A DNA stretch of 62,353 bases from a bacterium (GTDB lineage Bacteria > Fidelibacterota > Marinisomatia > Marinisomatales > UBA1611). Each line of letters begins with the position of its first letter. Within the stretch, counting starts at the first letter, position 1. The position numbers and the translations under genes are program-made. The stretch is from positions 1 through 62,353 of the forward strand of contig JAYPIC010000002.1 of assembly GCA_038127595.1 (NCBI GenBank). Reading direction: 5' to 3'. Below the pieces are notes generated by a model. That model was not told the origin of the DNA, made no database searches, and saw only the letters and a list, made by a program, of their open reading frames with translations. Below are positions 9,245 through 61,204 of this stretch, piece by piece.

Positions 9245-9592
9245 TTATAAAAGCTCTGAAATCACAGAAGGTAAATTCTTAACTAAACTTGATTTAGGTA
9301 ATATTAGATCGCACCCAGCAGATTTTAATTTCTTTAGGTCTTTAGCTTTTAATTCTTTTAATGAGCCAATAATTTTTAGCTCATGCCTCTTTAGCTCTGA
9401 AACTAAACCTACTGAGGAAAATACATCTTCATCTAAATCAATTATTGCTAGGATAGATTCATACGCAAAATCATCAGGGCTTGTATTTTCATCACAAAAT
9501 TCGACATTCATTTCATAGTCAACGCATGCGCTAGAAACTTTTGACCCTAATTCAAAATCCTTAATAAATAATAAAATATTTTTCATAATCAT
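9245..9592 (-). CDS. hypothetical protein, CheY-like receiver-fold candidate (stand-alone)
   Basis: The pattern of beta-strand ends resembles a receiver domain: NILLFIKD, ILAIIDLD (putative acceptor Asp), KIIGSL, DLILPK. I prefer the ATG at 9590..9592, which forms an ATGA overlap with the upstream stop (TGA 9589..9591). The ORF track start at 9613 would overlap by 25 nt. Confidence 0.4.
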   Translation of the reverse strand: MIMKNILLFIKDFELGSKVSSACVDYEMNVEFCDENTSPDDFAYESILAIIDLDEDVFSSVGLVSELKRHELKIIGSLKELKAKDLKKLKSAGCDLILPKSSLVKNLPSVISELL

Positions 9593-9951
9593 AGTTTGGG
9601 AACAAGGTCCCAATTAAAATCGGTTGATGAAGTTAACGCTTGATAGGCATCACTTACTTTATTTATTTCTTTTAATAGTTTTTTTACATCAATATCTCTT
9701 TGCAGTCCATCAAACTCTATAAATTTTTCTCTACATTTATTTAAAAGACTCTTTGCTCCATTTAAATTATTATTTTCAAGATGCACAAAACTTACGCTTA
9801 GCTGAATTAACCCCTGCACAAACCTTCGATCTTTCAAATAAAAATCCGACCAAAGCTCTTCCCATGATTCGTGTGCTTCAAAATATTCACCAGACCTAAA
9901 ATAAGTTAAGCCCTCTTGAAAAAGGTTTTCAATTTTTTGTAAATCATTCAT
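9589..9951 (-). CDS. DUF309 domain protein
   Basis: 120 aa. Characteristic DUF309 signature FRSGEYFEAHESWEELW ... RFVQGLIQLSVSFVHLENNNLNGAKSLL. Confidence 0.75.
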   Translation of the reverse strand: MNDLQKIENLFQEGLTYFRSGEYFEAHESWEELWSDFYLKDRRFVQGLIQLSVSFVHLENNNLNGAKSLLNKCREKFIEFDGLQRDIDVKKLLKEINKVSDAYQALTSSTDFNWDLVPKL

Positions 9952-20772: not shown

Positions 20773-20779
20773 AATTCCT

Positions 20780-21742: not shown

Positions 21743-21743
21743 T

Positions 21744-22832
21744 TCAAGATAATTTTTTCTCTATTTCATCTACCAATCTATAAGATGACTTACCATCTTT
21801 TTTGTATAAATAATGGCTATGAGCAACTTGTCTAAGATCTGACATTTCTTCTGGATGATCAGTAGCAAAAGCAATACTTCTGTGAAGCTCTGATGGATAA
21901 TCAACTTTATATACAAAGTCCAATTCTTGCATTCTTTCTAGGTCTAGTTTTTTTTTAAATCTTTTACTAAAAATTCGATGCCTCAATCTAAGCTTTAAGC
22001 ATTCTACCTGAATGATTGGTCGATTTAAGGGCAAAAATTCAAATATAGTAGATGACAAATCACTGATTAGAACATCAGCAATTAGAAAATATGGAATGAT
22101 ATTATAATCACTACTATCCAGGAGATATATATTATCATTTTTGATTGATAGGTTCTTCGCTATTTGGCTTTGGTGAACATACCTTTTTTGGAACCAAGAG
22201 AAGTTATGAAGTTTGAAAATAATATTATATTCACTAGATATAAATTCTAATTCCTTATATATATTTTCAAAAGAAGTTGGATAGAATGTTGGAGCATATA
22301 AAACAGTAGGCAGATCATTTTTTATACCAATACTATCTTTTAAGCGTTTATTTGCTTTTTCATTTGTAGTGTAAAGAGGATCAATTTTAGTAAAACCAGT
22401 TAAAGCTAAGTCTGCTGAATTAGATTGAATCAATAACTTCTGATACCTTGATTCTGATTCCACTGATCTAATATCAATTCTATCATCAATGTCATTATAA
22501 TAAGACTGCTTAAGCCCGATGCCATGATACACCATCACTGTTAGCGTATTATCTGAAGCTATCTTAGTTATCTGTCCAACATTAGCAACTAAAATGATAC
22601 TAAAGTTCTCATTTAGAATCTTTTTGATTCTTAATTCTTCATCATCTGCATCAATGGTATTAAGCCCTAAATCCTTGCATGCCAGGCAGAACAAATCTCT
22701 TTCTCTTTGATTAATATGTTGAGGCATAGAAAAATAAATATCATAATTACCTCTATTTTTAAATTCATCAACTATCGGCAAGAAATTAGGTAAATAGTAT
22801 AAATGATGAGTTTCAAAAAGTACTTTTATCAT
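21744..22832 (-). CDS. CDP-alcohol (CDP-glycerol type) glycerophosphotransferase family protein, TagB/TagF-like
   Basis: 362 aa. Family motifs VYHGIGLK, TVLYAPTFYP, VLISDLSSTIFEFLPLNRPII. Confidence 0.8.
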   Translation of the reverse strand: MIKVLFETHHLYYLPNFLPIVDEFKNRGNYDIYFSMPQHINQRERDLFCLACKDLGLNTIDADDEELRIKKILNENFSIILVANVGQITKIASDNTLTVMVYHGIGLKQSYYNDIDDRIDIRSVESESRYQKLLIQSNSADLALTGFTKIDPLYTTNEKANKRLKDSIGIKNDLPTVLYAPTFYPTSFENIYKELEFISSEYNIIFKLHNFSWFQKRYVHQSQIAKNLSIKNDNIYLLDSSDYNIIPYFLIADVLISDLSSTIFEFLPLNRPIIQVECLKLRLRHRIFSKRFKKKLDLERMQELDFVYKVDYPSELHRSIAFATDHPEEMSDLRQVAHSHYLYKKDGKSSYRLVDEIEKKLS

Positions 22833-22841
22833 TTTAAAAAA

Positions 22842-23969
22842 CTATCTGTTTATTCTTTTTAATATTTCATCGCGTGCGCGTATTGAGGCAGACCCATCAA
22901 GCTTGTATAGCATTTTTTTTTGATACTCTTCAATCAAGGCTGTGTTTTTATTGTTTTGATTTAATGCTTTTTCTATGGCAAGAGGTAACTGCTTAACATT
23001 ATCTGCTAAAAAACAAAATTTTTCAACTTCATCATTCATTTCTTTATCCAATCTTCTTTTGTATAGCCTTTTCTGAAAAATTCTATGGGATAATTTTAAG
23101 TGATAAAACCGATTTACAACTACTGGTTTTGATAATGCAATCATTTCGTATATAGTACTGCTCGCATCAGTTAACAAAAGGTCAGAAATTTTATAATAAG
23201 GAGTAACATTATACTCGGCCGGTTCTAATAATCTGATATGATCAAATTGATCTATTAATTTAAAAATTAACTTTCTTTGACCTTTTAGACTTATACCCCC
23301 AAAGCTATCTAGATAATAGGTCCACATATGTGGCTTGATTATTAGATTGTAGCCTGAGGTAATATCTCCAAGCGATAATCCTAACTTTTCAAGTGAGCTC
23401 GGATAAAATGTCGGAGCATATAGTATTGTTTTTTTTGATTTATCTAAACCAAGTGATTCCTCTTTATCTTTATAATAATTAGAATTTTTATTAAACAGCG
23501 AATCAAGTTTAATGTAACCAGTCAAAACTAAATCAGTATCTACTCCATGCTTTCGAAGCTGATCTATTCTATATCGCCCTTCAACAAATCTTACGTCAAG
23601 CCTTTTATTATTATCTCTCCAATAAGAGGGCTTAACTCCAATACCATGATAAATCATAATTACCAACGTAGTTTTACTTACATAGGATTCAATTTCATAT
23701 CTAGACCATCCACAAATAAAAACATCTAAGTTTAATTTTTTAATTTTAGTTTTCCTGATATCCTCATTTTCATGAAAAATAAATGACCCTTTTCTTTTAT
23801 TCAAAATTGATGTGCAAATTTCAATTTCCTCTTTTCTATTTTTACTAGATGTAGAAAAAAAAATTTTAAATCTATCGTCATTCTCTAGCAAATCAATGAG
23901 AGGGTCAAATTGAGCAAGATGATAAAGATGATACACATCAAACAAGATAGAAATCTGATTTTCCATCAA
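22842..23969 (-). CDS. CDP-alcohol glycerophosphotransferase family protein, TagB/TagF-like (paralogue)
   Basis: 375 aa. Motifs IYHGIGVK, TILYAPTFYP, LLLTDASSTIYEMIALSKPVV. Clearly paralogous to the neighbouring gene. Confidence 0.8.
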   Translation of the reverse strand: MMENQISILFDVYHLYHLAQFDPLIDLLENDDRFKIFFSTSSKNRKEEIEICTSILNKRKGSFIFHENEDIRKTKIKKLNLDVFICGWSRYEIESYVSKTTLVIMIYHGIGVKPSYWRDNNKRLDVRFVEGRYRIDQLRKHGVDTDLVLTGYIKLDSLFNKNSNYYKDKEESLGLDKSKKTILYAPTFYPSSLEKLGLSLGDITSGYNLIIKPHMWTYYLDSFGGISLKGQRKLIFKLIDQFDHIRLLEPAEYNVTPYYKISDLLLTDASSTIYEMIALSKPVVVNRFYHLKLSHRIFQKRLYKRRLDKEMNDEVEKFCFLADNVKQLPLAIEKALNQNNKNTALIEEYQKKMLYKLDGSASIRARDEILKRINR

Positions 23970-35067: not shown

Positions 35068-35150
35068 CTATATAAACAATAATACATCTTAATTTTTGAT
35101 TTAAATTTCAGATTAATTATTATATACTAAACACAACAAAGAAGAAAAAA

Positions 35151-36440: not shown

Positions 36441-36454
36441 GAAAAAATAGTTAA

Positions 36455-37177: not shown

Positions 37178-37180
37178 AAA

Positions 37181-38230
37181 ATGAAGGACGTTTATTATTT
37201 TGCCAACCAAGTTTATCAATATGGCCATGCTAAACCCATATATGATAAGACCGGTGGGACTTTCATTGTAAATAAATTAAATAGAGCGGCGAGATTTAAA
37301 TACTATCTTCGTTTTACAGAAAAAAATGATCCTGGATTTTTAGGGGCACCAAGAGTTATTCGTAAACCAAAAAATGAAGTTTATGATTTAGAAGGAGTAA
37401 TCATATCAGGGTCTAATTCAGAAATAAAACATGATAAAAAAAAGTCTATCTCTATTTTCATAGGTCATGGTGCAGGTGATAAAAAATTTGGAGGATCTGG
37501 AAATACCCTTGAGACATATGACTTTCATTTTGTATCTGGCCCAAAACACATTCATAAACAAAAAGATATGGGCATCCACATCCCTGAAGAAAAATTAATA
37601 AAAATAGGTTATCCTAAATTTGATGATTATGTAAATGACCGCATAGATAAAGAAAAATATTTTAATTTTTTAGGAGTTAAAGATAAAGAAAGAAAAAATA
37701 TACTTTATGCTCCTACTTGGCGATGGGGTAATGGCACGTTAGACAAGTATGGTAAAAAATTCATCCGAGCCCTCGATAATGATTACAATTTGATTATAAG
37801 ACCTCATTTTCATGATAGAAATAAAATAAAAATTTTAAAACTATGGGCGAAGTATAACGGGTTTAATAATGTCTATTTTTCTAATCCAGCTAAAATCATT
37901 AAAAATAGCACCATGAACGATTTTGCAATCTCAGACCTAATGATAAGCGATACTTCCTCAATTATTTATGAATATTTAATTACAAAAAAACCTATCATCA
38001 TTGCAAATAATGATTATGACCAACTTCATAATATGCCAGACGAATTAAGCGTTCTTTCAATAGCAAAAAGCTATGATGGTGAAAAATCTTCAATAAGTGA
38101 ACTTGTCAAATCTGATCTAGAAGATAAAAATCTTATTAATATTTATGAAAAAATGCTTAACAATTGTTTCTATTTTAATGATGGAAAAAGCACAGATAGA
38201 GCTGTTGAGTTCATAAAATCAATAAAATAA
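37181..38230 (+). CDS. TagB/TagF-like CDP-alcohol phosphotransferase family protein (third paralogue)
   Basis: 349 aa. Motifs IGHGAGDKKF, NILYAPTWRW, LMISDTSSIIYEYLITKKPII match the two paralogues at 21744..23969. Confidence 0.75.
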   Translation: MKDVYYFANQVYQYGHAKPIYDKTGGTFIVNKLNRAARFKYYLRFTEKNDPGFLGAPRVIRKPKNEVYDLEGVIISGSNSEIKHDKKKSISIFIGHGAGDKKFGGSGNTLETYDFHFVSGPKHIHKQKDMGIHIPEEKLIKIGYPKFDDYVNDRIDKEKYFNFLGVKDKERKNILYAPTWRWGNGTLDKYGKKFIRALDNDYNLIIRPHFHDRNKIKILKLWAKYNGFNNVYFSNPAKIIKNSTMNDFAISDLMISDTSSIIYEYLITKKPIIIANNDYDQLHNMPDELSVLSIAKSYDGEKSSISELVKSDLEDKNLINIYEKMLNNCFYFNDGKSTDRAVEFIKSIK

Positions 38231-38232
38231 GA

Positions 38233-40219: not shown

Positions 40220-40227
40220 TTTTACAC

Positions 40228-41109
40228 CTAACGTTTACCAATGTCTTTAAGAATATCATAAACAACTTTTGGTTTATTTGTAATAATGCCATTAGCACCT
40301 ATTGAAACTGCATGCATGATATCTTTAGAGTTATCTATTGTCCAATAATGCACTTCTAAACCCATTTTTTGTTTTTCTTTTATCCAATCAGGAAGATTCA
40401 TACCATATTTTTTAATTGTCTCAGAATAAAACGGAAGTTGAAATGCGTCAAATTTATTTTTATAAAAAGGAACCCAACCCCAAAACATCATCCTCTTTAT
40501 ATCGCTTCTTGATGCTGCTGTAGCAATTTTATTTTTAGTCAATTTTCTAAATTTTTTAATAACCTCATAGTGTGATGATACAACAAGGATATTATCTTGC
40601 ATATTATATCTACTTATTAATTCTATGAGTTTTATAAGACCACTTGCGTCCGGGTCCTTTATTTCAATATTAATCCTTTGTTCAGGAAATTTCTTAAAAA
40701 TTTCTTCTAATGATGGAATGTAATATTGAATATTTTTAGATCTTATAATACTAGGATTATCTTTATAAAATCCAAAACCAGCATCAAAATTTCTGATTTC
40801 TGATAACGAAACATCACCAATACTTATATCTATACCTGTTATTCTTGATAGGTTCTCATCATGAATAACTGTCCAGATTTCATCTTTAGTCTGCCAAATA
40901 TCTAACTCAATTATATCAGCGCCTTGATTAATTGCTAATTCAAAAGCTTCAATTGTATTTGGAGGTAATTCAAGGGACGATCCTTGATGAGCAATTATCT
41001 GTGGACAAGGACAGTCAAAATAAGACTTACTATTTTGTGAAAATAAACTACTTAGCGAAACTAGAGCAAAGCAAACTACATATTTTAACTGATCGTATTT
41101 AGTTAGCAA
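40228..41109 (-). CDS. glycerophosphodiester phosphodiesterase (GDPD family), secreted
   Basis: 293 aa. Signal-like N-terminus and GDPD motif IIAHQGSSLELPPNTIEAFELAINQGADIIELDIWQTKD. Confidence 0.88.
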   Translation of the reverse strand: MLTKYDQLKYVVCFALVSLSSLFSQNSKSYFDCPCPQIIAHQGSSLELPPNTIEAFELAINQGADIIELDIWQTKDEIWTVIHDENLSRITGIDISIGDVSLSEIRNFDAGFGFYKDNPSIIRSKNIQYYIPSLEEIFKKFPEQRINIEIKDPDASGLIKLIELISRYNMQDNILVVSSHYEVIKKFRKLTKNKIATAASRSDIKRMMFWGWVPFYKNKFDAFQLPFYSETIKKYGMNLPDWIKEKQKMGLEVHYWTIDNSKDIMHAVSIGANGIITNKPKVVYDILKDIGKR

Positions 41110-47010: not shown

Positions 47011-48225
47011 CTAACTATTAGGATGTATAATTTTGACAATAAATGAAGAAGAAGCTGAACTATAGAAAACACCTAGCCCACCTTCAAAATTAGAATCTGG
47101 TAATAAGTATATATTTTGACCAACAGGATCTCCTCTGAAATAGTTAAAGTAAGAATCACTGGTTGATTTATACGTCATCATATAATAGCCGTAATAATCA
47201 AAATAAAGCCACATAATTGGCGATGGGGCTCTGTCGGCATTCCATAGCCATGGATTATTCCTATATGGACTATTTCCCCTCCATGTACCATCTACAGATC
47301 CTCTTTTCAGAGGGTTTTTCCATATATCGGAGAGCCTGTTATATTCTAAACTATCATTATCAAACAATCCTTTTTCATCGCTATATATAAGGTTTATATA
47401 ACAGCTATCTCTAATACCGTTTCTATTTCTATCTGAAAAATCTTCACCTTCATCATAGGTACCGTTCTGATTTGTATCCTCATAAGGCTCTAGGTCAACT
47501 TTATCTGATTCTAAAGCATAAGAAATGATCTGAATTGTGTTATAATCATCCTCATTAAAATCAACTGCGAACAATGGCAAGCTAGCAAAACTCTTAGTGT
47601 AACAATCGCCAATTTTAAACTCGAGTGAGTCAACGTTAATATTATTCGATTCAATGTACTGAATGGGATCTTGATATAATAAGACCATTTGCTCAAATGT
47701 TAAGTTGTCTAAATTATTTACATCAACAGTACTGATTGACTCCATGCTCCCATCAGGGCATTCATAGTCTGGCATATCTATAGGAGATATTACTATTTCT
47801 TCAGGTACGCTAGTTTGAGCAATAACAGAATCGCCATCATGACTTACAACCAACCTATACGTTGTTCCAGAGCTAATTATATAATTCAACCAATACGATG
47901 CAACAGAATCAATATTTTGCATTGAGAAGTCAACAGGGTAATATCTTCCATTACCTACTGAATAAAAATGGAGCTCAGAACTATCAGTCATATTAATGAG
48001 TGTTACATTAGCATCGTCTATATAAAGCTCTTTTGCATCAACTGATTCATTAACCTCTGCTGTTCTAGAAACGAAAACGGTATCGAAAACAGGAAACCCT
48101 GCATTGATAGAAGCAAATACTACAAGTTGCTCTTGGTACTCAATTGTATTATCATCAAAGGTACATGATTGTATGACAATCATGATAAATAGTGCATAAA
48201 TAAAGTATTTCACTTTGCTTATCAT
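47011..48225 (-). CDS. DUF4249-like lipoprotein, partner of the upstream TonB-dependent receptor
   Basis: 404 aa. Lipobox VIQSC. C-terminal EGGLGVFYSSAS motif. The start codon abuts the receptor stop with no intergenic base. Contains the D/N-rich loop DTNQNGTYDEGEDFSDRNRNGIRD. Confidence 0.6.
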   Translation of the reverse strand: MISKVKYFIYALFIMIVIQSCTFDDNTIEYQEQLVVFASINAGFPVFDTVFVSRTAEVNESVDAKELYIDDANVTLINMTDSSELHFYSVGNGRYYPVDFSMQNIDSVASYWLNYIISSGTTYRLVVSHDGDSVIAQTSVPEEIVISPIDMPDYECPDGSMESISTVDVNNLDNLTFEQMVLLYQDPIQYIESNNINVDSLEFKIGDCYTKSFASLPLFAVDFNEDDYNTIQIISYALESDKVDLEPYEDTNQNGTYDEGEDFSDRNRNGIRDSCYINLIYSDEKGLFDNDSLEYNRLSDIWKNPLKRGSVDGTWRGNSPYRNNPWLWNADRAPSPIMWLYFDYYGYYMMTYKSTSDSYFNYFRGDPVGQNIYLLPDSNFEGGLGVFYSSASSSFIVKIIHPNS

Positions 48226-50586
48226 TTAAAACTCCCAGCTAAAACCGATTGTCGGGATGATTGGAAATAAGCTTATATCGTTTACCTGAAGCCTACCTTC
48301 ATCCTCTTCATCTACATTAATCTCTCCTACATCTGGTTGCCCATTACCATTTGCATCATGTTTTTCTTCGTCCCAATCTCCGTCATCATCTACTCCATTA
48401 TAAATACTTCCAACATTATATGATTTTCTAAAAATATTTTTACGATTAAAAACATTTATGATCTGAACGTAAATATCCATCTTAGATCCAAAGAACTTTG
48501 TATGATATACAAATCCTAGATCAAGTCTACTATATGGTGAGTATCTTGCAGAATTTCTTGTGCCGGGAATTGTTCTGTAAACCTCATCAGGACTTTCAGG
48601 CAGTATTTGATTGTAATATCCAATAATTGGGGTGTAAGCCTGCCCAGATTGCAGGGATAATTTCCAATTCATATCCCATTTTTGACTAATCTGATAATTT
48701 CCAAGAGCACTAAATGAATGCGTCCTATCCCAGCTATTGTAGTATTCTTCATTTTTATCATAGAATATGCTATTCATGGATTTTCTTGACACTGAAAATG
48801 TATATGCAAGCCAGCCACTTAACCTACCGCTCATCTTTTGAGCAAAAAGCTCTAAACCATATGCATAACCATTGGAGGGAGTAACAATATCAGATAAAGC
48901 TGTATCAGAAATAGCCTCATCAGTAGTTGCCCTAGACTCTTCAAAGGTAAAAAGGTTTTTTATGTCTTTGTAATACCCCTCAACTTGAAGCTTATATATG
49001 TCATTAACATACTCTTCGTATCCCAAAACGATTTGGGATGACTTTGCTGGTGCGACAGTATTATCAACTGCTATCCACTGATCTAATATTGTAGGGTTGT
49101 AATCATCTTGGAAAGTGGCTATGAACTGATGGTAGTTTCCAACTGAAAAGTTTAAGTATCTATCCTCTGTCAAAAGATATTTCATTCCAAAGCGAAGGTC
49201 TGGGAATATTGAATCGCTGTACACATTGTAAAGATTTAATCTAAATCCAGGTTCTAAAATGATTTTTTCCGATGGAGAGTATTTTAGCTTCGCGTAACTA
49301 GCAAACTCCTTGGGTTTTGTATTGATCTCAAACTGAAGTGAATCATTAAAGGAATTAGTATACAGAAATCCCAAATTTTTTATTTGAGCACCAAACTTAA
49401 CTGTACTTGAAGAGGACTTAAACCAAGAAAAGTTAGCTGCTATCGTTGCATCATCAATTTGATTATCACTGTTAAGTCCATTAGAGCCACCTAGACCAAA
49501 CTCTGTAAAAAATAAACTATTAGCTAAAAGAAAATTACCTATAAGCTTTTCAGAAAAAACTCTACGGTACTGGGCGCTTAATGTTCTGTTGCCCCATCTC
49601 CCTGATAGACCAAATGTGTCAAAAACTAGATCATCAACTCCATTATAAAAACTTAGTGAAACGCGATCTTTAGGAGATAAGTCTGAATACACATGACTTT
49701 GAACATCATAAAAGTAGTAAGGTGGAATACTTGGAACATTCTGAAAAATTTTATCAAAATATGTTCTTCTTCCTGAAAATACCCAAGCTCCCTTGTAAAA
49801 TGGGCCTTCTAATGTTGCTTGAGCAGACAAAAGAGACAAATTAGCTTTCCCCTCAAACTTTTTTTGATTTCCTTCTCTGCTAATTATATTCAAGACCGCG
49901 GATAATCTGCCACCATATTCAGCATTGTAAGCTCCCTTAATTAATTCGGCCTCTTTTACACCATCGACGATGAAATTCGAAAATATCCCTCCCAAGTGAG
50001 ATGGGTTATATACGGTGACGCCATCAAGTAAAATCAAATTTTGATCTGTATTCCCACCTCTTATAACCAATCCTGTACTAAACTCAGATGTAGTGAGAAC
50101 ACCTGGAAGCGCCTGTATTGTCCTGAAAAGATCAGGCTCTGCTAATGCAGGTGCAGATCTTAACATTCGTGGGGATAAATTAACTGTACTAGGCTGGATA
50201 TTATTTTTTCTTTTGATTTTTTCAGCGGTAACCTCAACTTCGCTGAAAGAGACAACTTCTTCTGTCAGAACTAAATCTAGTTTTACTGACTGTCCATCGG
50301 ATATATCAATTTTTTGTCTAAGAATTTTATAACCAACATAGGATACAGAAACTTCATATGAACCCTGAGGAATTTCTTGAAGTACGTAATAGCCATTTAC
50401 ATCAGTTGCCATTCCCAAGGCTAGGTCCGTAATAAAAACGTTCGCTCCAATCAATGCCTCACCGTTCGAGCTATCCGTTACAAACCCATAAACAGAACCA
50501 TTATTTTGAGAAAAACTAAAGTTCAGTTGATAGAGCAGTATTAATGCTGATTTAACTAGTAAGGTCTTTAAGAATCGTTTCTGCAT
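48226..50586 (-). CDS. TonB-dependent receptor with N-terminal CarboxypepD_reg-like domain (paralogue of 29661..32120)
   Basis: 786 aa. GSVYGFVTDSSNGEALIGANVF ... GYYVLQEIPQGSYEV, plug motif GLVIRGGNTDQNLILLDGVTVYNPSHLGGIFS, terminal GFSWEF. Confidence 0.9.
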   Translation of the reverse strand: MQKRFLKTLLVKSALILLYQLNFSFSQNNGSVYGFVTDSSNGEALIGANVFITDLALGMATDVNGYYVLQEIPQGSYEVSVSYVGYKILRQKIDISDGQSVKLDLVLTEEVVSFSEVEVTAEKIKRKNNIQPSTVNLSPRMLRSAPALAEPDLFRTIQALPGVLTTSEFSTGLVIRGGNTDQNLILLDGVTVYNPSHLGGIFSNFIVDGVKEAELIKGAYNAEYGGRLSAVLNIISREGNQKKFEGKANLSLLSAQATLEGPFYKGAWVFSGRRTYFDKIFQNVPSIPPYYFYDVQSHVYSDLSPKDRVSLSFYNGVDDLVFDTFGLSGRWGNRTLSAQYRRVFSEKLIGNFLLANSLFFTEFGLGGSNGLNSDNQIDDATIAANFSWFKSSSSTVKFGAQIKNLGFLYTNSFNDSLQFEINTKPKEFASYAKLKYSPSEKIILEPGFRLNLYNVYSDSIFPDLRFGMKYLLTEDRYLNFSVGNYHQFIATFQDDYNPTILDQWIAVDNTVAPAKSSQIVLGYEEYVNDIYKLQVEGYYKDIKNLFTFEESRATTDEAISDTALSDIVTPSNGYAYGLELFAQKMSGRLSGWLAYTFSVSRKSMNSIFYDKNEEYYNSWDRTHSFSALGNYQISQKWDMNWKLSLQSGQAYTPIIGYYNQILPESPDEVYRTIPGTRNSARYSPYSRLDLGFVYHTKFFGSKMDIYVQIINVFNRKNIFRKSYNVGSIYNGVDDDGDWDEEKHDANGNGQPDVGEINVDEEDEGRLQVNDISLFPIIPTIGFSWEF

Positions 50587-51061
50587 GTGTGTTGATATTC
50601 ACTTTCTTATATATTTTTTCAATCTTTCCATATTCGTCAATGACAAAAGTCATTCTTTTAGGAGTAAACATTCCATTTGCGCCAAAACGTTTTGCCACTT
50701 CCTTATCTTTATCGGAAAGAAAATTAAAGGGCAAATTATATTTAGTTTTAAACTTTTTTAACGCCTCAGAATTATTATAACTAATTCCAAATACTGTTAT
50801 GTTATTTTTTTCAAATTCTTCGTAAATGTTGCGGAACCCACAAGCCTCTTTCGTTCATCCAGGGGTATCAGCGTATGGAAAGAAGTAGACGACGAGCTTC
50901 TTCCCTAAAAAATTTTTTGATAATAACAACTTTTCATCTTGATCAAAAAGCTCAAAACTTGGAGCAATCTCACCTTCCATAAGTGAGATTTTTTCAGTAA
51001 AAATTGAATTTATAGTTGTTGCAAACATAATTGCTAAAATCGAACCAATTAAATATTTCAA
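50552..51061 (-). CDS. exported Bcp/PrxQ-type peroxiredoxin with in-frame UGA (probable selenocysteine) at the peroxidatic position
   Basis: Two same-frame ORFs (50855..51061 and 50552..50734) are separated only by TGA at 50855..50857. My translation of the gap is stop-free: TKEACGFRNIYEEFEKNNITVFGISYNNSEALKKFKTKYN. The joined 169-residue product is colinear with Bcp, and TGA replaces the Cys of the TPGC-x4-C motif (VVYFFPYADTPG-U-TKEAC). N-terminal signal peptide. Confidence 0.75.
50829..50843 (-). promoter_or_regulatory. candidate bacterial SECIS-like hairpin
   Basis: mRNA sense: UGA-ACGAAAGAGGC-UUGUGG-GUU-CCGCAA. The stem is 6 bp (one G.U) and begins 11 nt after the UGA, with G and U in the apical loop. 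It is short, and I judged it by eye only. Confidence 0.4.
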
Positions 51062-51063
51062 TT

Positions 51064-51993
51064 TTAATCTTTACCTAAATAGGAAAGATTTTCCTCAGAG
51101 AAAGGTATTGGATTTATATTGTTTTCTTTAAAGTATTTAGTTGAATCACACGTATTACCCTCAACGAGCATCGTCAATTGATCGGCAGTAACAGGGAACC
51201 ATGGGAATCTATCTAGAGCTTTCGCTACTGATTTCACAGCTATTACTGGGGCAGGAACCATAAATTTTTTTTTCCCTGAAGCAGAGCCTATTATTTGTAT
51301 GATTTCTTTCCATGTAAAATCTTGCCCGCCAAGTTCAATTGTCTTTAATTCGGTTTTTTCGTTTTGCAAAGAACCAACAAAACTTGTTGCGACATCTTTA
51401 ATATGCACAGGTGACATAGAAAAATTACCAGCATCAAATGGCAATAATCCCTCATGAAAAAGTGGTGCTGGAAAAGGTAGATTGATTAAATCTTTTTTTA
51501 ACTGAGAACAAAATTCAGGTCGCCCATTCCCTCTTGGGTCACCAAATATTGTTGAAGGTCTAAAAATAGTCCATTTTAGATCTGTGTTCCTTAAATATTG
51601 TTCTGACATCCATTTTGTTTTTTGATAACCTGTACCATCAGGACAAACTCCATTAGCACTCATCAAAATAAATCTGTTGACATTTGCTTCGATAGACGCA
51701 TCAATCGCATTCACCGCGCCACCAAAGTGAAGATCTTCATACGTTATTCCCTTAGACTTGAATTCTCTTATAATGCCAATGGTATAAATGACAGCATCAG
51801 TACCCTCTACAGTTTTTTTGACGGCTGATTTATCATTAACATCCCCAATTACTAGCTCACAATCACCTACTGAGGGTACTTTGTAAATTGATTCTGAGCG
51901 AACTAGTAGCTTTGGCTTGTGACCTTCAGATAAAAGATTATCGATTATGTGCGAACCAACAAAACCAGTGCCGCCAAATATTGCAACTTTCAT
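51064..51993 (-). CDS. NAD(P)H-binding atypical SDR (NmrA/NDUFA9-like)
   Basis: 309 aa. N-terminal Rossmann motif KVAIFGGTGFVGSHI. Its stop lies 2 nt before the peroxiredoxin start. Confidence 0.8.
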   Translation of the reverse strand: MKVAIFGGTGFVGSHIIDNLLSEGHKPKLLVRSESIYKVPSVGDCELVIGDVNDKSAVKKTVEGTDAVIYTIGIIREFKSKGITYEDLHFGGAVNAIDASIEANVNRFILMSANGVCPDGTGYQKTKWMSEQYLRNTDLKWTIFRPSTIFGDPRGNGRPEFCSQLKKDLINLPFPAPLFHEGLLPFDAGNFSMSPVHIKDVATSFVGSLQNEKTELKTIELGGQDFTWKEIIQIIGSASGKKKFMVPAPVIAVKSVAKALDRFPWFPVTADQLTMLVEGNTCDSTKYFKENNINPIPFSEENLSYLGKD

Positions 51994-52088
51994 TATGTAT
52001 CAGTAATCCTCTTTTTAAAACAATGTTAATTAGTGTTAATTATAAATTAGGTTATTTATCATTACGATGTCAATCTAAAATGAGCGTT

Positions 52089-55000
52089 TTAAGCGTTTTT
52101 ATTTGTTAGCCTTCCAAAAAAGTCTTTAATGTCTTCAATGATTAAATAACTCGTAGGTACTAGTATTAGAGTTATCAGCGTTGCAAATAAAACTCCATAG
52201 GCAAGTGAAATAGCCATCGGAATTAAAAATTGTGCCTGAACACTTTTCTCAATCAGAAGTGGGAATAATCCAACAAATGTAGTAATTGAAGTAAGGAGAA
52301 TAGGTCTAAACCTTCTAGGTCCAGCAGCAAGAGCCGCCTCCAAGCTTGTTTTACCATCGTCTCTTTTATATCTATTTATAAAATCGACCATTACTAGACT
52401 ATCATTAACCACTACGCCAGATAAGGCAACTATACCTATGATAGAAAGCACAGCCAGATTCATGCCCATTATTATGTGGCCTATGACAGCACCTGTGAAA
52501 CCAAAAGGTATTGCAGACATTATAATTAGCGGTTGTAAGTACGATTTAAACGGTACAGCCAAAAGTACATACACGACAAAAAGTGCTAACGCAAAATTTT
52601 TAAATAATGAACTTAGGGTGTCTCTTTGTTCTCTTTGCTCGCCCTCAAAACTATAATTAACACTAGGATAATCAAGAAGTATTGGAACTATGTGTTCAGA
52701 TTCGAATTTTGCTAAAATTTCGTTTGCATTAGCTTCACTCAGATCAACATCTGCTGTTATACTTATAGATCTTTTTCTATCCGTTCTTGTAATGGTAGAG
52801 TAACCGCTGGATAGTTCTCCTTGTGCTACTTGACCAAGAGGCACTTCTACATTATTACCAACCCTTACATTCATTTGCTCTAAATTATTTAAGCTAACCC
52901 TTTCATCTTTTGGATAACGCAAAAATACCTTCACCTCATCACGGCCACGCTGAACTCGCTGAACCTCATCTCCATAAAATGCTTGTCTAACTTGCCTGGC
53001 AAGTGACGCCATCGTAATGCCATAATTCTGCGCTTCTGGAAGCAAATTAAGTTTAATTTCATCTTTTCCTGCGCTAAACGAATCCTTAATGTCAAATACT
53101 CCTGCATAAGTTTGCAATTTATCCTTTAAACTATTAGTTACCGCCTTTAAATCTTCTCTATTCACACTTGAAAGCTGAATTTCGATTGGAGCACCGGTGG
53201 TAAAAAGATCAGAATCAAAAGTCACTTGTTTTACTCCAGGTATTGGCCCTGTTAGTTCTCGCCATATTTTTGAAATTTCAACAGTGCTAATTGGCCTCTC
53301 TTCACCAGGTGCTAGCTCAATGACACATTCTGCTAAGTGCGAACCAAAAAAAGTTGCATCTAAGTTACCAGGGCCCCTAGCTGATTGAGTTTTAATTGGT
53401 TGATCGCCAGCCGTAGATACCATATTTATAAAAATTTTAGTTTCTGGATATAATACTTCCAGAGAATCTTTAAGCTTGTATGCAGACTTTTCAATTTGAT
53501 CTAAGCCAACTTTTGTTAGTGAAACAGGGGTGCCCTCTGGATACTCAACTCCAGCAATAACTATATCAGCTTCAAGTGGCGGAAAAAAATTGAATCTGAT
53601 AAAACCACTTGCAACCAGCCCAACTGTTAAAATAAATATCGAGATTGCTATTGCAACAGTGTTACCACGATTTTTAAGAGCAAGTTCAAGAACTGGGGTA
53701 TATTTATTTTTAATAAACCCTTGAAGCCAATTATGAATCCCCATCTGAATGTCAGACCACCATTGGGAGAATCGATTTTTTTTCTTAGCCTCATTTATTT
53801 TCATATGGGCCAAATGAGCAGGCAAAATAGTTAATGACTCAATGAGAGAAAACATTAAAACTAATATGGTAACCACCGGAATGATCTTCCATATTTTACC
53901 CAAAGCGCCCTCTACCAAAATCATTGGTGAGAAGGTAACCATAGTTGTTAGAACAGCAAAAATCACTGGCTTTGCTACTTGATATGCTCCTTCCAATGCA
54001 GCATCAACTCCACTTAAACCTCTTTTTAGATAAATATGAATGTTTTCACCAACAACAATAGCATCGTCAACAACAATACCGAGAACTAAAATGAAAGTAA
54101 ATAAGGATATCATATTAATTGATACATCGAATAAAGGAAGCAACCAAAACCCACCCATGAAAGATATCGGGATGCCTAGTGAAACCCAGGCTGCCAACTT
54201 TGGCTTTAAAAACAAAGCTAGAACGATTAGAACAAGCCCAAGACCAAGATAAGCATTTTCGGTTAAAAGTTCAATCCTACCTCTAAGAATTACAGATTCA
54301 TCCTTCATTGTTGTTAAAGAGACACCAGGAGGCATGACGGGGTTCTTCTTCTTAATATATCCATGAACAGCATCTGCTATATCTAGAGCGTTCTGCTCAC
54401 CAGTCCTATATACTCTAATTAATAACGCTGGCTCACTATTAAATTTTATATCATACTCAACATCTTGAAAACCATCTACAATTTCAGCAATATCTCTGAG
54501 AAATACCGTCGAACCATCAGCTAATGATAAAACAGGAATGATCCCAAACTCTTCCCCTGTGTAGGCCTGGCCTTTCGAACGAATTAAAATTTCGCCATCA
54601 TATGTTTCTATAGCACCTCCAGGTACATCCATAGAAGAAGTACGGATTTTATTGGCTACATAATCGAACGAGATACCATATTTTTGCAAAGTATTTTCAG
54701 ATATCTCAATTGAAATTTCTCTAGGCTTTTTGCCTAGCCGTGTTTGGGTAATGTTTGGAAGTTCGCTGACCTCATCTCTTACTTTTTCTGCAATGTCAAG
54801 TAGGCTAGCCTCATCTACATGGCCATGCACAGCTATGGTTATAACTTCAGGTTGACCGTCAAAGCTTCTTATAGTTGGCTTTTCAGCATCATCAGGAAAT
54901 GATGTTATTGCATCAACTTGAGATTTTACTTCATCTTTTACCTCATCTATATCATATCCGTTCTCAACTTCAATATTTATTGAGCCATACCCTTCATTTG

Positions 55001-55253
55001 AGGAACTAGTTATTCTTTTTAATCCATTTATACCTTGCACCTGTTCTTCAACTTTTACACATATTGATTCTTCAATGTCTTCTGGAGATGCGCCGGGATA
55101 AACAACGGAAACGTTAATTATAGGAATGGTTATATCCGGGAATACCTCCATTCGCAATCTAGACAAAGTGAATATGCCAGCAATAATAATAAATACCATT
55201 AACAAATTTGCTGCTACAGTATTTAGGATGAACCAACGTATGATATTTTTCAT
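52089..55253 (-). CDS. RND efflux transporter permease (AcrB/HAE1-like)
   Basis: 1054 aa. 12-TM plus two large periplasmic loops architecture. Typical TM4 region LGIVVDDAIVVGENI. Confidence 0.92.
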   Translation of the reverse strand: MKNIIRWFILNTVAANLLMVFIIIAGIFTLSRLRMEVFPDITIPIINVSVVYPGASPEDIEESICVKVEEQVQGINGLKRITSSSNEGYGSINIEVENGYDIDEVKDEVKSQVDAITSFPDDAEKPTIRSFDGQPEVITIAVHGHVDEASLLDIAEKVRDEVSELPNITQTRLGKKPREISIEISENTLQKYGISFDYVANKIRTSSMDVPGGAIETYDGEILIRSKGQAYTGEEFGIIPVLSLADGSTVFLRDIAEIVDGFQDVEYDIKFNSEPALLIRVYRTGEQNALDIADAVHGYIKKKNPVMPPGVSLTTMKDESVILRGRIELLTENAYLGLGLVLIVLALFLKPKLAAWVSLGIPISFMGGFWLLPLFDVSINMISLFTFILVLGIVVDDAIVVGENIHIYLKRGLSGVDAALEGAYQVAKPVIFAVLTTMVTFSPMILVEGALGKIWKIIPVVTILVLMFSLIESLTILPAHLAHMKINEAKKKNRFSQWWSDIQMGIHNWLQGFIKNKYTPVLELALKNRGNTVAIAISIFILTVGLVASGFIRFNFFPPLEADIVIAGVEYPEGTPVSLTKVGLDQIEKSAYKLKDSLEVLYPETKIFINMVSTAGDQPIKTQSARGPGNLDATFFGSHLAECVIELAPGEERPISTVEISKIWRELTGPIPGVKQVTFDSDLFTTGAPIEIQLSSVNREDLKAVTNSLKDKLQTYAGVFDIKDSFSAGKDEIKLNLLPEAQNYGITMASLARQVRQAFYGDEVQRVQRGRDEVKVFLRYPKDERVSLNNLEQMNVRVGNNVEVPLGQVAQGELSSGYSTITRTDRKRSISITADVDLSEANANEILAKFESEHIVPILLDYPSVNYSFEGEQREQRDTLSSLFKNFALALFVVYVLLAVPFKSYLQPLIIMSAIPFGFTGAVIGHIIMGMNLAVLSIIGIVALSGVVVNDSLVMVDFINRYKRDDGKTSLEAALAAGPRRFRPILLTSITTFVGLFPLLIEKSVQAQFLIPMAISLAYGVLFATLITLILVPTSYLIIEDIKDFFGRLTNKNA

Positions 55254-55257
55254 CAGT

Positions 55258-56388
55258 CTAATTTTCTCTTACTGGCATTCCATCAACATATGAGTCTAAT
55301 CTGGTAGTTAACACTCTGTCATTTTTTTCCAAACCATCAGCAATGAAAGCAAAATCTTTTTCATACCTAATTACTTCAACAGACTTTTTACGCAGCACAT
55401 TAGCCTCTACTACCCAGATCATATCATTTTTAACTGCGCTTCTAGGTACAATAGTAATACCATCATATAATAGCCCATCTATCTCTGCATTTACAAACAT
55501 TCCAACCTTTAACTTTTCATTCATCCCATTCATCGGAATAGTAGCAATAACAGAGATCATTCTGGTTTTAGGATCTATCTGGGACTCTGCCCGAACAATA
55601 AAGCCGCTAGCCTGGAATGTATCTCCACCGTAGCTAGTTGTTAAAACCACGCTAGGTCTTTTACCTTTTAATAATGTAGTCCCATCTAAAGGAACTCCTA
55701 AGAAAGGAATATCTTTGTCAGCGATCGGAAGCCTTACCTCTAAATTCAATGTATTGTAAATGTCTGCAATTCTAGACCCAGGTACAAGGTTTGCACCTAT
55801 ATCAACCATTTTTTTTCTTACCCTACCATCAAAAGGTGCCAGAATCACGGTCCTTTTCAAATTTCTCTTCGATTGCTCATAGGCGGCTTCAGCTGCTGCT
55901 AATACAGCCCTTGCTTGAGCGAGTTGTGGCTCACGTAAAGTCAAACTAGAAGCATCTCCTTTGCCCACTCTTTTCCACTCAATATTGGCAAGTTTTGATT
56001 CCGCTTGCTCCCTTTCCAAAGCAAGCTTAGCTTGAAATAAACTTGATTCAGTGGTAATGAGAGCTAGCTCGTAGTCTCTTTTTTCAATTTTCATTAAAGT
56101 ATCACCAGATCTAAAACCTGCACCATCTAAAAATTTGGGAGATATCCATTCAACTTTGCCGGCGACCTCAGATGTAATAAGGATCTCATGTTCTGGCCTG
56201 ATTGTCCCCTGTGAACTTATTTTTGCTGTTACTTGTGATGGATATGCTGCCATCGTCTCAACTACTTGAGGTATTATCTTTGGTTTTTGAAACTCTGCCT
56301 CAGGCTTAAGTTTGATCATTAATACAAAAATTATTAGACTAGCTAAAACGATAACGAAAGGGGTGAATTTTCTAAAATTTATCTTCAT
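55258..56388 (-). CDS. RND efflux periplasmic adaptor (membrane fusion protein)
   Basis: 376 aa. N-terminal anchor, coiled-coil hairpin (ALEREQAESKL ... AAEAAYEQSKRNLKRT) followed by VILAPFDGRV. Confidence 0.88.
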   Translation of the reverse strand: MKINFRKFTPFVIVLASLIIFVLMIKLKPEAEFQKPKIIPQVVETMAAYPSQVTAKISSQGTIRPEHEILITSEVAGKVEWISPKFLDGAGFRSGDTLMKIEKRDYELALITTESSLFQAKLALEREQAESKLANIEWKRVGKGDASSLTLREPQLAQARAVLAAAEAAYEQSKRNLKRTVILAPFDGRVRKKMVDIGANLVPGSRIADIYNTLNLEVRLPIADKDIPFLGVPLDGTTLLKGKRPSVVLTTSYGGDTFQASGFIVRAESQIDPKTRMISVIATIPMNGMNEKLKVGMFVNAEIDGLLYDGITIVPRSAVKNDMIWVVEANVLRKKSVEVIRYEKDFAFIADGLEKNDRVLTTRLDSYVDGMPVREN

Positions 56389-56405
56389 TTTAATCTCACT
56401 ATCTG

Positions 56406-57857
56406 TTAAAAGGTTCCGCCAAATGCCAATAGCAGGTTTAGGCGAGTATGAATTTTATTTTTCTTTGCCGCAAGAACTTGAGACCTAGACAAAAACCATC
56501 TTTGCTGACTATCCATTACTGCAATCAGGTCAACTAGACCTGAATCATACCGTTCCCGAGATAACTTGTATGCTGCCTCTGCTTGCTCTGCTGCAACCTC
56601 ATAGGCATCCAAAAGAATGTTATTGGAATTTTCTGCAAAAAGAGTTTGTTCTACTTCTGAATAGGCATTTATGATGGTTTTGATTAAATCTTGCTTGGCA
56701 ATATTCAAATTTTCTTCTGCAATACTATTATTTGCCCTAATGCTTCCACCTTGGAAAAGTGGCAGCCCAACCGTTAGGCCTTGAGACCATATTTGATAGT
56801 CTTCATCAAGAATATCGTTTAAATCACTAGAAGAGGTTCCCGCAGAACTAGTAAGAATTAAGCTCGGTAAAAGAGAAGCAAAAGATTCAGATTTTTTAAA
56901 TGATGCTGCTTGAAGTTTAGCCAATGAAGACTTTATATCCGGTCTCCTATTTAGAATTTCAGATGGGATGCCGATGGTTATTTTTGGCAATTTAGAACCT
57001 AATTTATTATTTACCATGTATGTACCACTTGGATATTTTCCAAGCATTGACTCTAACCTCCTCACAAACACTAAGTATGTTTGTTTTCTAATTTCCATTT
57101 GAGCCTTTGAGGAGGCTTTTGAAGATTTGGTCAGCCTTAAATCTAGGGATGATCTTAAACCTTTATCATACCGAGCAGAAACCATATCTGCAAGTTCACT
57201 AACACTATTGTATGTCTCTTTAGATAGCTCATATTGCTCTAAGGCTTCAACAGTAGAGAAATATAATTTTGCTAACTGAATACGCATTGAAAAACTTAAA
57301 AAAGAGAGGTCGTAATAAGCAGATTGATAATCATTAGATGCGGCTCTAGCACGGTTAAATAACTTGCCCCAGACATCAAGCTCCCACTGCATTGTAAGAT
57401 TTAGTCCAAAATTACTAGAGCTAAAACTAGTCACCCCACTACCAGAATCATTAGACTGGGCAGAGTCAGGGCCACCACCAAAAAAATCATCAGAAAGTCC
57501 AAAAGCAGTTAAATTTTGTTTTCTAGAGGCTCCATTCATACCAAGACTAAAGGATGGAAGCCTAGATGATTTGTTAATTTTTAATATTTGTTTAGCAACG
57601 TTCATTCTTGATGAAATATTCTTAAGATCCGGACTACTCTGATTAAAATCATTTAAGACTCTAGTAAAAATCGAATCATCAAATGATTCCCACCAATCAC
57701 CTATAACGCTAGAACTATCTGTTAATTTTAAATCCCAAGAGGCAGGAATAGATTCTGAGATTGAAAGGTCATCTGTGGAAAATTTTTCGGCACACGCAGA
57801 AAAGGTAACTATAAAAATTATCGAGTAAAGCTTCATAAATATTGGTTGGAGGTTCAA
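56406..57857 (-). CDS. outer membrane efflux protein (TolC/NodT-family lipoprotein)
   Basis: 483 aa. Two-repeat OEP architecture. Lipobox TFSAC. The likely start is M8 at 57836. Confidence 0.85.
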   Translation of the reverse strand: MNLQPIFMKLYSIIFIVTFSACAEKFSTDDLSISESIPASWDLKLTDSSSVIGDWWESFDDSIFTRVLNDFNQSSPDLKNISSRMNVAKQILKINKSSRLPSFSLGMNGASRKQNLTAFGLSDDFFGGGPDSAQSNDSGSGVTSFSSSNFGLNLTMQWELDVWGKLFNRARAASNDYQSAYYDLSFLSFSMRIQLAKLYFSTVEALEQYELSKETYNSVSELADMVSARYDKGLRSSLDLRLTKSSKASSKAQMEIRKQTYLVFVRRLESMLGKYPSGTYMVNNKLGSKLPKITIGIPSEILNRRPDIKSSLAKLQAASFKKSESFASLLPSLILTSSAGTSSSDLNDILDEDYQIWSQGLTVGLPLFQGGSIRANNSIAEENLNIAKQDLIKTIINAYSEVEQTLFAENSNNILLDAYEVAAEQAEAAYKLSRERYDSGLVDLIAVMDSQQRWFLSRSQVLAAKKNKIHTRLNLLLAFGGTF

Positions 57858-57869
57858 CTATTAGAATAA

Positions 57870-58334
57870 TTATTCTGATATCAAATTATTATATATTTTT
57901 TTTAAAACAATTTTAAATGTTTCAACTTCTTTGCTGTTTATGCCACTAAGAACTTCATTCCTAGTTTGCTCAATTACGGGCATTACATTCTTCATTAAAT
58001 CTTTTCCTTTATTACTAAGAACTACTCTTTTTATTCTTTGATCAATTTGATCAGAGTATCGTACCAATAAATTTTTCTTTTCTAATGTATCAATTATCTT
58101 CGTTACACTCGTTTTATCCTTGCCACAGTATTCAGCTATTTCTTTTTGAGATATACCCTTCTGTTTCCATATTGGACCTAAAACTATCCATTGGTCTTGA
58201 GTTATATCCATGCCAAGCTTGTGAGCATTTTGACTAAATTTTTTTGTGCACAATCGATCGACTTGAGACATCAACATGCCAATGTCAATTTCACTTTTCA
58301 AGTTTTGACTATTAGACATATAAAAAATTACCAA
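57870..58334 (-). CDS. MarR family transcriptional regulator
   Basis: 154 aa winged-HTH protein (GISQKEIAEYCGKDKTSVTKIIDTLEKKNLLVRYSDQIDQRIKRVVLSNKG), heading the efflux operon. Confidence 0.88.
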   Translation of the reverse strand: MVIFYMSNSQNLKSEIDIGMLMSQVDRLCTKKFSQNAHKLGMDITQDQWIVLGPIWKQKGISQKEIAEYCGKDKTSVTKIIDTLEKKNLLVRYSDQIDQRIKRVVLSNKGKDLMKNVMPVIEQTRNEVLSGINSKEVETFKIVLKKIYNNLISE

Positions 58335-60712: not shown

Positions 60713-61204
60713 ATGAAAAATATATATTACATGCTTACAATAGTTTTTGTTGTTGTTCTAAATGGTGAAGAAAGATATAATAACGCAATTCCTCATTATG
60801 TTTGGGACTCTGACTCATCAAATGTTGGCCAAACAGAAATTTGGTTTCAAGATTGGACGGATTATACAAGATTATTCGTTAAATCTATCAGAGATACTTC
60901 TTCAATAGAAAAACATCCATATGCCAAAACAGATTTCAAAGATGAATATAAGAACGCCCGTGAATACAAAAAGCCTAACTATATACAATTATTAGGAAAT
61001 ATTAAATGGATTGAGCCTCAAAACTGGTCTGAAGATAATGTTAATGCGTTCAAATGGTATGTTGATAGAGATCAAAATTGGACTTATACTAATAAAACTT
61101 TATCTGGTGAAGCCAAGATCTCACAAAATAAGCTTCATTTAACCATTAAAGATTACGATAATGTAATTATTGATGTTGTTTCTAGATATAGAAAATATAA
61201 ATGA
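60713..61204 (+). CDS. hypothetical exported protein (163 aa)
   Basis: N-terminal hydrophobic signal (MLTIVFVVVLNG). Trp/Tyr-rich, no recognised domain. Transcribed divergently from the regulator. Confidence 0.55.
   Translation: MKNIYYMLTIVFVVVLNGEERYNNAIPHYVWDSDSSNVGQTEIWFQDWTDYTRLFVKSIRDTSSIEKHPYAKTDFKDEYKNAREYKKPNYIQLLGNIKWIEPQNWSEDNVNAFKWYVDRDQNWTYTNKTLSGEAKISQNKLHLTIKDYDNVIIDVVSRYRKYK

Follow-up and report, generated by a model that had tools for sequence, protein, structure and literature searches.

We analysed a window of 62,353 nucleotides (contig JAYPIC010000002.1, assembly GCA_038127595.1) and conclude, with a probability of roughly 0.93, that a minus-strand gene interrupted in frame by a TGA codon encodes a selenocysteine (Sec)-containing atypical 2-Cys peroxiredoxin of the Bcp/PrxQ type, belonging to low-GC marine Marinimicrobia (SAR406, Candidatus Neomarinimicrobiota). 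An earlier reading of this DNA, made from its letters and translations without database searches (the sequence-only reading), had proposed a selenoprotein split by gene calling at this position. Translation of positions 51061 to 50552 gave a single frame of 169 codons with one internal stop (TGA, 50857..50855) and a terminal TAA. As that reading had stated, the two open reading frames (ORFs) called here, 51061..50855 (68 aa, with the C-terminal sequence YFFPYADTPG) and 50734..50552 (60 aa), share one minus-strand frame and are joined through the TGA. The 120 nt that follow the TGA hold no stop, and their 40 codons translate as TKEACGFRNIYEEFEKNNITVFGISYNNSEALKKFKTKYN, just as it had given them. 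Around the junction the frame reads KKLVVYFFPYADTPG, then TGA, then TKEACGFRNIYEEFEKNN, and continues into the second ORF.

The joined product, with Cys substituted at the TGA, matched the Pfam family AhpC-TSA (PF00578, E=1.9e-33) over residues 30–149, a match that spans the junction. Its closest solved structures were Bcp peroxiredoxins, with S. solfataricus Bcp1 the best of them (PDB 3DRN, E=5.6e-28), and the product is colinear with these, in line with its earlier description as Bcp-type. The residue encoded by the TGA, U69, aligns with the peroxidatic residue of the solved Bcp structures and with that of the Cys homologues described below, and the resolving Cys follows five residues later (U69-TKEA-C74); both positions had been assigned correctly from the letters alone. 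The active-site motif reads P62-YAD-T66-PG-U69 and is complemented by an arginine, R136, in the segment K-R-M-T-F-V-I-D; P62, T66 and R136 are conserved at 90% or more in the protein alignment of homologues. Among NCBIfam models the top match was Bcp (PRK09437, 126.9 bits, scored with Cys for Sec and with the signal segment included), followed by PrxQ. This score lies below the PRK09437 equivalog cut-off of 140 bits, and the PrxU model NF040737 gave 25 bits against a cut-off of 270, so that the protein is not an orthologue of PrxU. It is a Bcp/PrxQ-like atypical 2-Cys peroxiredoxin and not a trusted Bcp equivalog.

Related DNA came from two sources, a genome set with a single representative of each GTDB species and the marine metagenomes of JGI/ENA. 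We identified 90 Marinimicrobia-type loci, on 10 genome contigs (7 of them labelled as Candidatus Neomarinimicrobiota metagenome-assembled genomes, MAGs) and 80 marine metagenome contigs, whose products match the window peroxiredoxin across residues 1–169. The MAGs so labelled include JAYEFG01, JAPYOT01, PBOO01, JABGZQ01, JASLML01 and JAZFSI01. The homologous codon is TGA in all 90, far more often than chance would allow, at amino-acid identities ranging from 99% down to ~45–52%. The sequence-only reading had held that TGT or TGC in close relatives would expose the TGA as an error; no orthologous locus departs from TGA. Counted over all sequences fetched, TGA stands at this codon in 92, TGC in 44 and TGT in 25, with TGA in every member of the Sec group (92/92) and TGC or TGT in every other homologue (69/69). 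The alternation of Sec and Cys for which an alignment of orthologues had been suggested is therefore present: 91 Marinimicrobia-type genes with TGA stand against 69 Cys homologues from cyanobacteria, Acidobacteriota, KSB1, Chloroflexota and other groups, which carry the same TPG-C-TKEAC-GFR motif.

Three of the sequences recovered in this comparison call for separate comment. The contig L001 (CAXRAW010000007.1, 2567 bp), labelled as a “Flavobacteriaceae bacterium” MAG, matches the window at 99–100% identity across three features, namely the NAD-binding gene, the peroxiredoxin gene and the start of the TonB receptor; it is probably mis-binned or mislabelled, and the 90%-identity clusters of the window proteins carry the NCBI name Marinimicrobia. 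For the citrate synthase and the inositol-3-phosphate synthase of the window, NCBI gives proteins of 90% identity or more the name Candidatus Marinimicrobia/Neomarinimicrobiota. In the Blastocatellia MAG GFS_1591 (L015, JAYTCQ010000328.1, 3202–3204) a TGA occupies the peroxidatic codon of a cytoplasmic-type Bcp gene. This gene also has a TGCGGGTTCCGC hairpin and is 83% identical to a Cys gene in L055 that bears the hairpin itself, and its closest database homologues have Cys in all 120 cases. We regard its TGA as a singleton, probably an error or a recent null allele (pseudogene); a Cys-to-Sec change of very recent date is the less likely alternative. Recurrent conversion of Cys to Sec driven by the hairpin in Cys genes was considered and found unsupported, L015 being the single case. 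A signal-bearing Cys relative of 47% identity (P0117; L161-L164:4001-4519, marine contigs) was also considered as a Cys orthologue and rejected, since it lies in a different gene context (ThiI, DUF2231, glutaredoxin, BolA and a second AhpC-TSA protein with a type IX secretion system (T9SS) sorting tail) and is a paralogue or a distant relative. Its N-terminus (MS...IIMISC...) resembles a signal or lipoprotein sequence, and it follows that, among marine bacteria of the Fibrobacteres–Chlorobi–Bacteroidetes (FCB) type, exported Bcp-like peroxiredoxins occur with Cys as well as with Sec.

Comparison of the window gene with ten orthologues of increasing divergence revealed purifying selection both before and after the TGA. 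On its 3' side the ratio of nonsynonymous to synonymous substitution rates (dN/dS) was 0.07–0.23 in nine of the ten comparisons, synonymous sites being saturated in the tenth, which means that the sequence 3' of the TGA is translated.

A second constraint is visible in the mRNA. The codons for A-C-G-F-R-N downstream of the UGA form a short hairpin that begins 11–12 nt past the UGA and has a stem of 5–6 bp and a GUU loop (Table 1), which resembles a selenocysteine insertion sequence (SECIS) and occurs in the majority of orthologues as UUGCGG GUU CCGCGA. The five core pairs (+13..+25) form in 56 of 56 distinct sequences; sliding the pairing partners lowers this to 36–69%. The variation, 48 cells in all, consists solely of single changes that preserve pairing through wobble (U-A to U-G, G-C to G-U or C-G to U-G). 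Codon choice within the hairpin is fixed in the Sec genes, with GGG in 92/92, TTC in 91/92 and CGY (CGC or CGT) in 92/92, whereas elsewhere in the same 92 genes these codons account for 10%, 16% and 15% of the codons for their amino acids, and window-wide for 16%, 16% and 14%. G+18, the four-fold-degenerate third base of GGG, lies in the loop and is invariant, whereas neighbouring four-fold sites take all four bases. Of the 92 Sec genes, 87 specify C74 by TGC and 5 by TGT, and either codon pairs with the G at +23. The hairpin with its GUU loop is present in 92/92 TGA genes and in 7/69 Cys genes. RNAalifold, by which we also sought a longer SECIS or a lower stem, returned a consensus of the 5-bp core only, and an Rfam scan of the window found two tRNAs and no SECIS or other RNA family, so that the hairpin corresponds to no Rfam family.

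We read this hairpin as a minimal SelB-binding element. It resembles the E. coli fdhF-type SECIS in lying within the coding region and in presenting G then U in the apical loop, and it shares the 11-nt offset from the UGA with the E. coli minimal SECIS (PMC8659212). It differs in size (15 nt with 5–6 bp, against a 17-nt minimal and a ~40-nt full element in E. coli), in the lack of a bulged U, in its GUU loop and in a stability weaker than the −7.5 kcal/mol expected of bacterial SECIS (bSECIS) elements.

The sequence-only reading had also assigned a signal peptide to the protein, and the N-termini of the Sec forms bear this out as far as the segment itself is concerned. Apart from L015, all untruncated Sec forms begin with M followed by K or R and then a hydrophobic stretch of ~15–20 residues (maximum Kyte-Doolittle 15-mer 1.6–3.7), and several contain small-residue cleavage motifs such as ...FLSASA/KP. 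ATG stands at the homologous start in several lineages. Most Cys homologues (cyanobacteria, Acidobacteriota, other phyla), in contrast, begin at the catalytic domain and lack a signal-like N-terminus, as expected of cytoplasmic proteins. Export of the Sec peroxiredoxin is likely on the strength of this segment.

Based on established bacterial Sec insertion, we propose that SelB would be recruited by the minimal hairpin as the ribosome reaches the UGA and would bring Sec-tRNA(Sec) to codon 69. The precursor carries the signal-like segment, and the mature enzyme would probably work in the periplasm or cell envelope. By analogy with peroxiredoxin chemistry, the U69 selenolate, positioned by T66 and R136, would attack the peroxide to give a selenenic acid, which C74 would resolve into an intramolecular selenenylsulfide. 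A thioredoxin-fold reductant, periplasmic if the enzyme is exported, would then recycle the selenenylsulfide; no candidate for this partner was identified among the genes adjoining the peroxiredoxin.

Several results weigh against decoding of the UGA as Sec. As the sequence-only reading had already noted for the window, neither a tRNA-Sec (ARAGORN) nor a member of the SelA, SelB or SelD families (Pfam scan of the ORFs) is found in its 62 kb. The 2–3 kb flanks of 160 related loci likewise gave no Sec machinery by ARAGORN or by tblastn for SelD, a search in which an E. coli SelD sequence was the query and the window and the related loci were the targets. The ~5 kb beyond the left end of the window, past a tRNA-Val, contain no Sec machinery, with no tRNA-Sec and no Rfam match. 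Three SAR406 single-cell genomes do carry selD according to a 2016 survey (PMC5029168, Table 1), which places the selenium donor enzyme in the lineage; the same survey lists these genomes as “orphan SelD”, with no other Sec components and no selenoprotein genes, and is silent on their completeness (PMC5029168). The hairpin adds further points on this side. No double compensatory changes occur among the 56 distinct sequences, because both arms also encode invariant residues. Folded as a single sequence, the window hairpin has a minimum free energy (MFE) of −5.1 kcal/mol and a z-score of +1.16 relative to shuffles; the 5-bp core averages −5.0 kcal/mol (range −6.3 to −2.0) and the segment from the UGA to +48 averages −7.2 (range −13.4 to −3.3). 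The bSECIS model asks for an apical loop of 3–9 nt with G in its first two positions followed by G or U, an upper stem of 4–16 bp, a UGA-to-loop spacing of 16–37 nt and an MFE of −7.5 kcal/mol or lower, and a subset of genuine bSECIS elements fail it (PMC13188914). The SECIS check suggested by the earlier reading thus had a divided outcome: a conserved hairpin lies at the expected distance and agrees with the model on three of four counts, its geometry included (3-nt GUU loop, 5–6 bp stem, spacing of 17 nt), and its stability falls short of the threshold.

The missing machinery, the report of selD as the sole Sec gene of SAR406 single-cell genomes (PMC5029168) and the weakness of the hairpin relative to the usual SECIS cut-off would all suit a UGA that is recoded, only not to Sec. 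A tRNA(Cys) resembling tRNA-Sec might, together with a SelB-like factor, insert Cys; alternatively, a near-cognate tRNA(Trp) or tRNA(Cys) might read through the codon at low level. Either way the mature enzyme would be a thiol peroxiredoxin or have some other residue at position 69. tRNA-Sec-like tRNAs charged with Cys occur in some bacteria. We nevertheless consider such recoding improbable: an enzyme with Trp as its peroxidatic residue could not catalyse, which does not fit the strong purifying selection; a clade-wide UGA with a dedicated hairpin offers no obvious advantage for inserting Cys over the TGC or TGT of the 69 homologues; the spacing and G-U loop of the hairpin are like those of SelB-binding elements; and the lineage has selD. 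Selenocysteine remains our preferred identity for residue 69. A wider proposal, which we advance tentatively and hold somewhat less likely than its opposite, is that Marinimicrobia, an abundant ocean phylum without cultured members, are genuine Sec decoders in which SelD supplies a clade-wide, syntenic and exported Sec-PrxQ, with a SECIS that consists of a 15-nt hairpin made wholly from the C-G-F-R codons.

The in-frame TGA is not a sequencing error, a pseudogene or a sign of genome-wide recoding. When one assembly alone shows an in-frame stop, an error or an inactivating mutation, in a plain Cys gene or a pseudogene, is the usual cause, and L015 appears to be such a case. For the window gene this explanation is effectively refuted and very improbable, given that TGA recurs at 90/90 orthologous loci, which were obtained independently in many studies and on many sequencing platforms (independence that also makes a shared-reference artefact implausible), that dN/dS remains low downstream and that the synonymous sites of the hairpin are frozen in TGA-bearing genes only. 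Dozens of public gene predictions (P0001-P0098), most of them starting from an internal Met, put W at this codon (TPG-W-TKEAC), which shows the TGA to be independently present in further assemblies. These W calls and the AT-rich composition of the genome (33% GC) might suggest that TGA is reassigned throughout, to Trp (code 4) or Gly (code 25); the calls apparently reflect code 4 applied on short AT-rich contigs. Stop usage refutes reassignment, to which we give a negligible probability. TGA terminates 10 of the 53 ORFs in the window, among them 9589..9951 and 60713..61204, whose stops (9589..9591 and 61202..61204) had already been cited as evidence of ordinary termination. Two TGA stops separate unrelated Pfam families (Vut_1 from GTP cyclohydrolase I, and adenylate/guanylate cyclase from Exo_endo_phos). 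With the standard code, coding sequence takes up 96.6% of the window, no other gene in these ~60 kb of coding sequence has an in-frame TGA, and the window lacks the features expected if TGA were read as sense (table 4 or 25). Moreover, the enzyme would lose its activity if W or G took the place of the catalytic Cys. Equally improbable as an error is that the TGA acts as a real stop between two products, a 68-aa exported peptide and a C-terminal fragment of 60–100 aa. Two public gene calls (P0099 and P0100) do predict a 100-aa product from MKEACGFR... directly after the TGA, but the residue at this supposed start is K, not M, in the window and most orthologues. The two halves jointly form one thioredoxin-fold domain, which corresponds colinearly to a single Pfam domain and to the solved Bcp structures, and neither could fold or catalyse alone.

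The Sec-containing peroxiredoxin is not new to the literature, peroxiredoxins with a TxxU motif being a bacterial selenoprotein family of long standing, and the novelty implied by the sequence-only reading was overrated. The “Peroxiredoxin” family (PF00578, motif TxxU) of the Sargasso Sea and Global Ocean Sampling (GOS) marine selenoproteomes comprises 253 Sec sequences from 34 GOS samples (Zhang & Gladyshev 2008, PMC2398784), and the 2016 survey lists 91 selenoproteins of the Sec-peroxiredoxin family in 78 genomes (PMC5029168). Two reads filed under “#Peroxiredoxin” in Dataset S1 of the former (PMC2398784) represent the same protein, with U at the same position, the ADTPGUTKEACGFR motif and 92–96% identity to the window product: JCVI_READ_1092959502526 is identical at 133/139 residues, with just two differences beyond the first five aligned residues at the read start, and JCVI_READ_1092257139374 at 126/137. 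These entries show that the finding is correct and has been known since 2008. They are unassembled reads that come without an organism, gene context, a signal-peptide note or a locus-specific SECIS analysis, and the window and its relatives add the Marinimicrobia lineage, the conserved neighbours and the anatomy of the hairpin. The literature searched contained no paper that ties Marinimicrobia or SAR406 to a Sec-peroxiredoxin; the lineage, the synteny, the export-like N-terminus and the minimal hairpin anatomy appear to be absent from the searchable literature.

PrxU of Eubacterium acidaminophilum is a Sec-peroxiredoxin shown experimentally, in which Sec replaces the peroxidatic Cys of the motif PxxxTxxU (PMC13188914). 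The window protein shares its AhpC/TSA fold and this motif with Sec at the peroxidatic position, but belongs to another subfamily, with a Bcp-type resolving Cys at +5 and an export-like N-terminal segment, and comes from an aerobic-ocean lineage, whereas PrxU comes from a strict anaerobe. Mechanistically the closest model is the Cys-type Bcp/PrxQ (PRK09437; 3DRN), which has the same fold and catalytic-domain length, the motif PxxxTxxC-x4-C and the Arg in the R-x-T-F-[VI]-ID strand; the window protein is set apart from most of these homologues by Sec in place of Cys and by its signal-like N-terminus.

General understanding of selenoproteins is unchanged by these results. An already catalogued marine selenoprotein is now tied to Marinimicrobia, with an extracytoplasmic function suggested for it, and a conserved antioxidant enzyme of this major ocean lineage is seen to be wrongly represented in databases, where the gene is either split or has its codon read as Trp. 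The locus is also an instance of a conserved SECIS-like element of very small size; if verified, the hairpin would be a compact candidate for the engineering of Sec insertion.

Table 1. Positions of the peroxiredoxin gene, its elements and its immediate neighbours in the window.
Feature	Position	Strand	Remarks
Peroxiredoxin precursor coding sequence	50552..51061	-	169 codons + TAA stop; TTG start; predicted Sec codon is codon 69
Signal-peptide-like N-terminal segment MKYLIGSILAIMFATTINSIFT	50996..51061	-	predicted export signal or membrane anchor
In-frame UGA, predicted Sec codon U69	50855..50857	-	peroxidatic position of P62-x-x-x-T66-P-G-U69
Resolving cysteine C74 codon (U-x4-C)	50840..50842	-	also in 5' arm of hairpin; C74 nearly invariant in homologue alignment
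SECIS-like hairpin UUGUGG-GUU-CCGCAA	50829..50843	-	starts 11 nt 3' of UGA; GUU loop 50835..50837
NAD(P)-binding NmrA/YbjT-like gene	51064..51993	-	Pfam NAD_binding_10, 6.9e-27; ends 2 nt before peroxiredoxin start
TonB-dependent receptor, CarboxypepD_reg domain	48226..50586	-	Pfam CarbopepD_reg_2 + Plug

The gene neighbourhood is conserved among the 90 orthologous loci. In 81 of them the NAD(P)-binding gene is the next gene upstream in the same orientation, and in 84 a TonB-dependent receptor lies downstream, likewise on the same strand; in the window, the first candidate start of this receptor overlaps the 3' end of the peroxiredoxin gene by 35 nt. An AcrB-type pump further upstream is conserved in all 34 loci with a flank long enough to include it. 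The minus-strand genes at 51064–58334 encode a MarR-family regulator (57870..58334), an outer-membrane efflux protein, an HlyD-type adaptor, an AcrB-type resistance-nodulation-division (RND) pump and the YbjT/NmrA-like protein, and the peroxiredoxin is the last gene of this same-strand string headed by the regulator. The string may represent an envelope detoxification module under a MarR/OhrR-like regulator.

The TonB-dependent receptor directly downstream of the peroxiredoxin forms part of a unit that is present twice in the window, at 28583–32120 and at 47011–50586. Each copy consists of a CarboxypepD_reg/Plug receptor and, after it, a protein of ~370–400 aa, which matches DUF4249 in the 47011–50586 unit and gives no Pfam match at 1e-5 in the 28583–32120 unit. 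Two further clusters, at 20062–23969 and 33955–41109, resemble loci for the synthesis of a glycerol-phosphate or inositol-phosphate polymer or of lipid head groups. They include three TagF-like homologues of CDP-glycerol glycerophosphotransferase (21744..22832, 22842..23969 and 37181..38230), two nucleotidyltransferases, a myo-inositol-1-phosphate synthase, a GH99 glycosidase, a GDPD phosphodiesterase and a heptosyltransferase. The ORF at 38233..39129 matches the helical domain of a phage 5-hydroxymethyldeoxyuridine (5-hmdU) DNA kinase (PF18723, 2e-17).

At its left end (1–120) the window breaks at a tRNA-Val beside a Lon protease gene, and two NCBI assemblies (the ends of L165 and L166) break at the same place. 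The Lon gene is carried by the NCBI assemblies GCA_038114905.1 and GCA_038140835.1. On a long polished contig (L168:16741-20445) the 3.3 kb past the tRNA-Val are devoid of called genes, bar one 63-aa call, and of Rfam matches. The region past the tRNA-Val may be variable, hard to assemble or a hotspot of integration.

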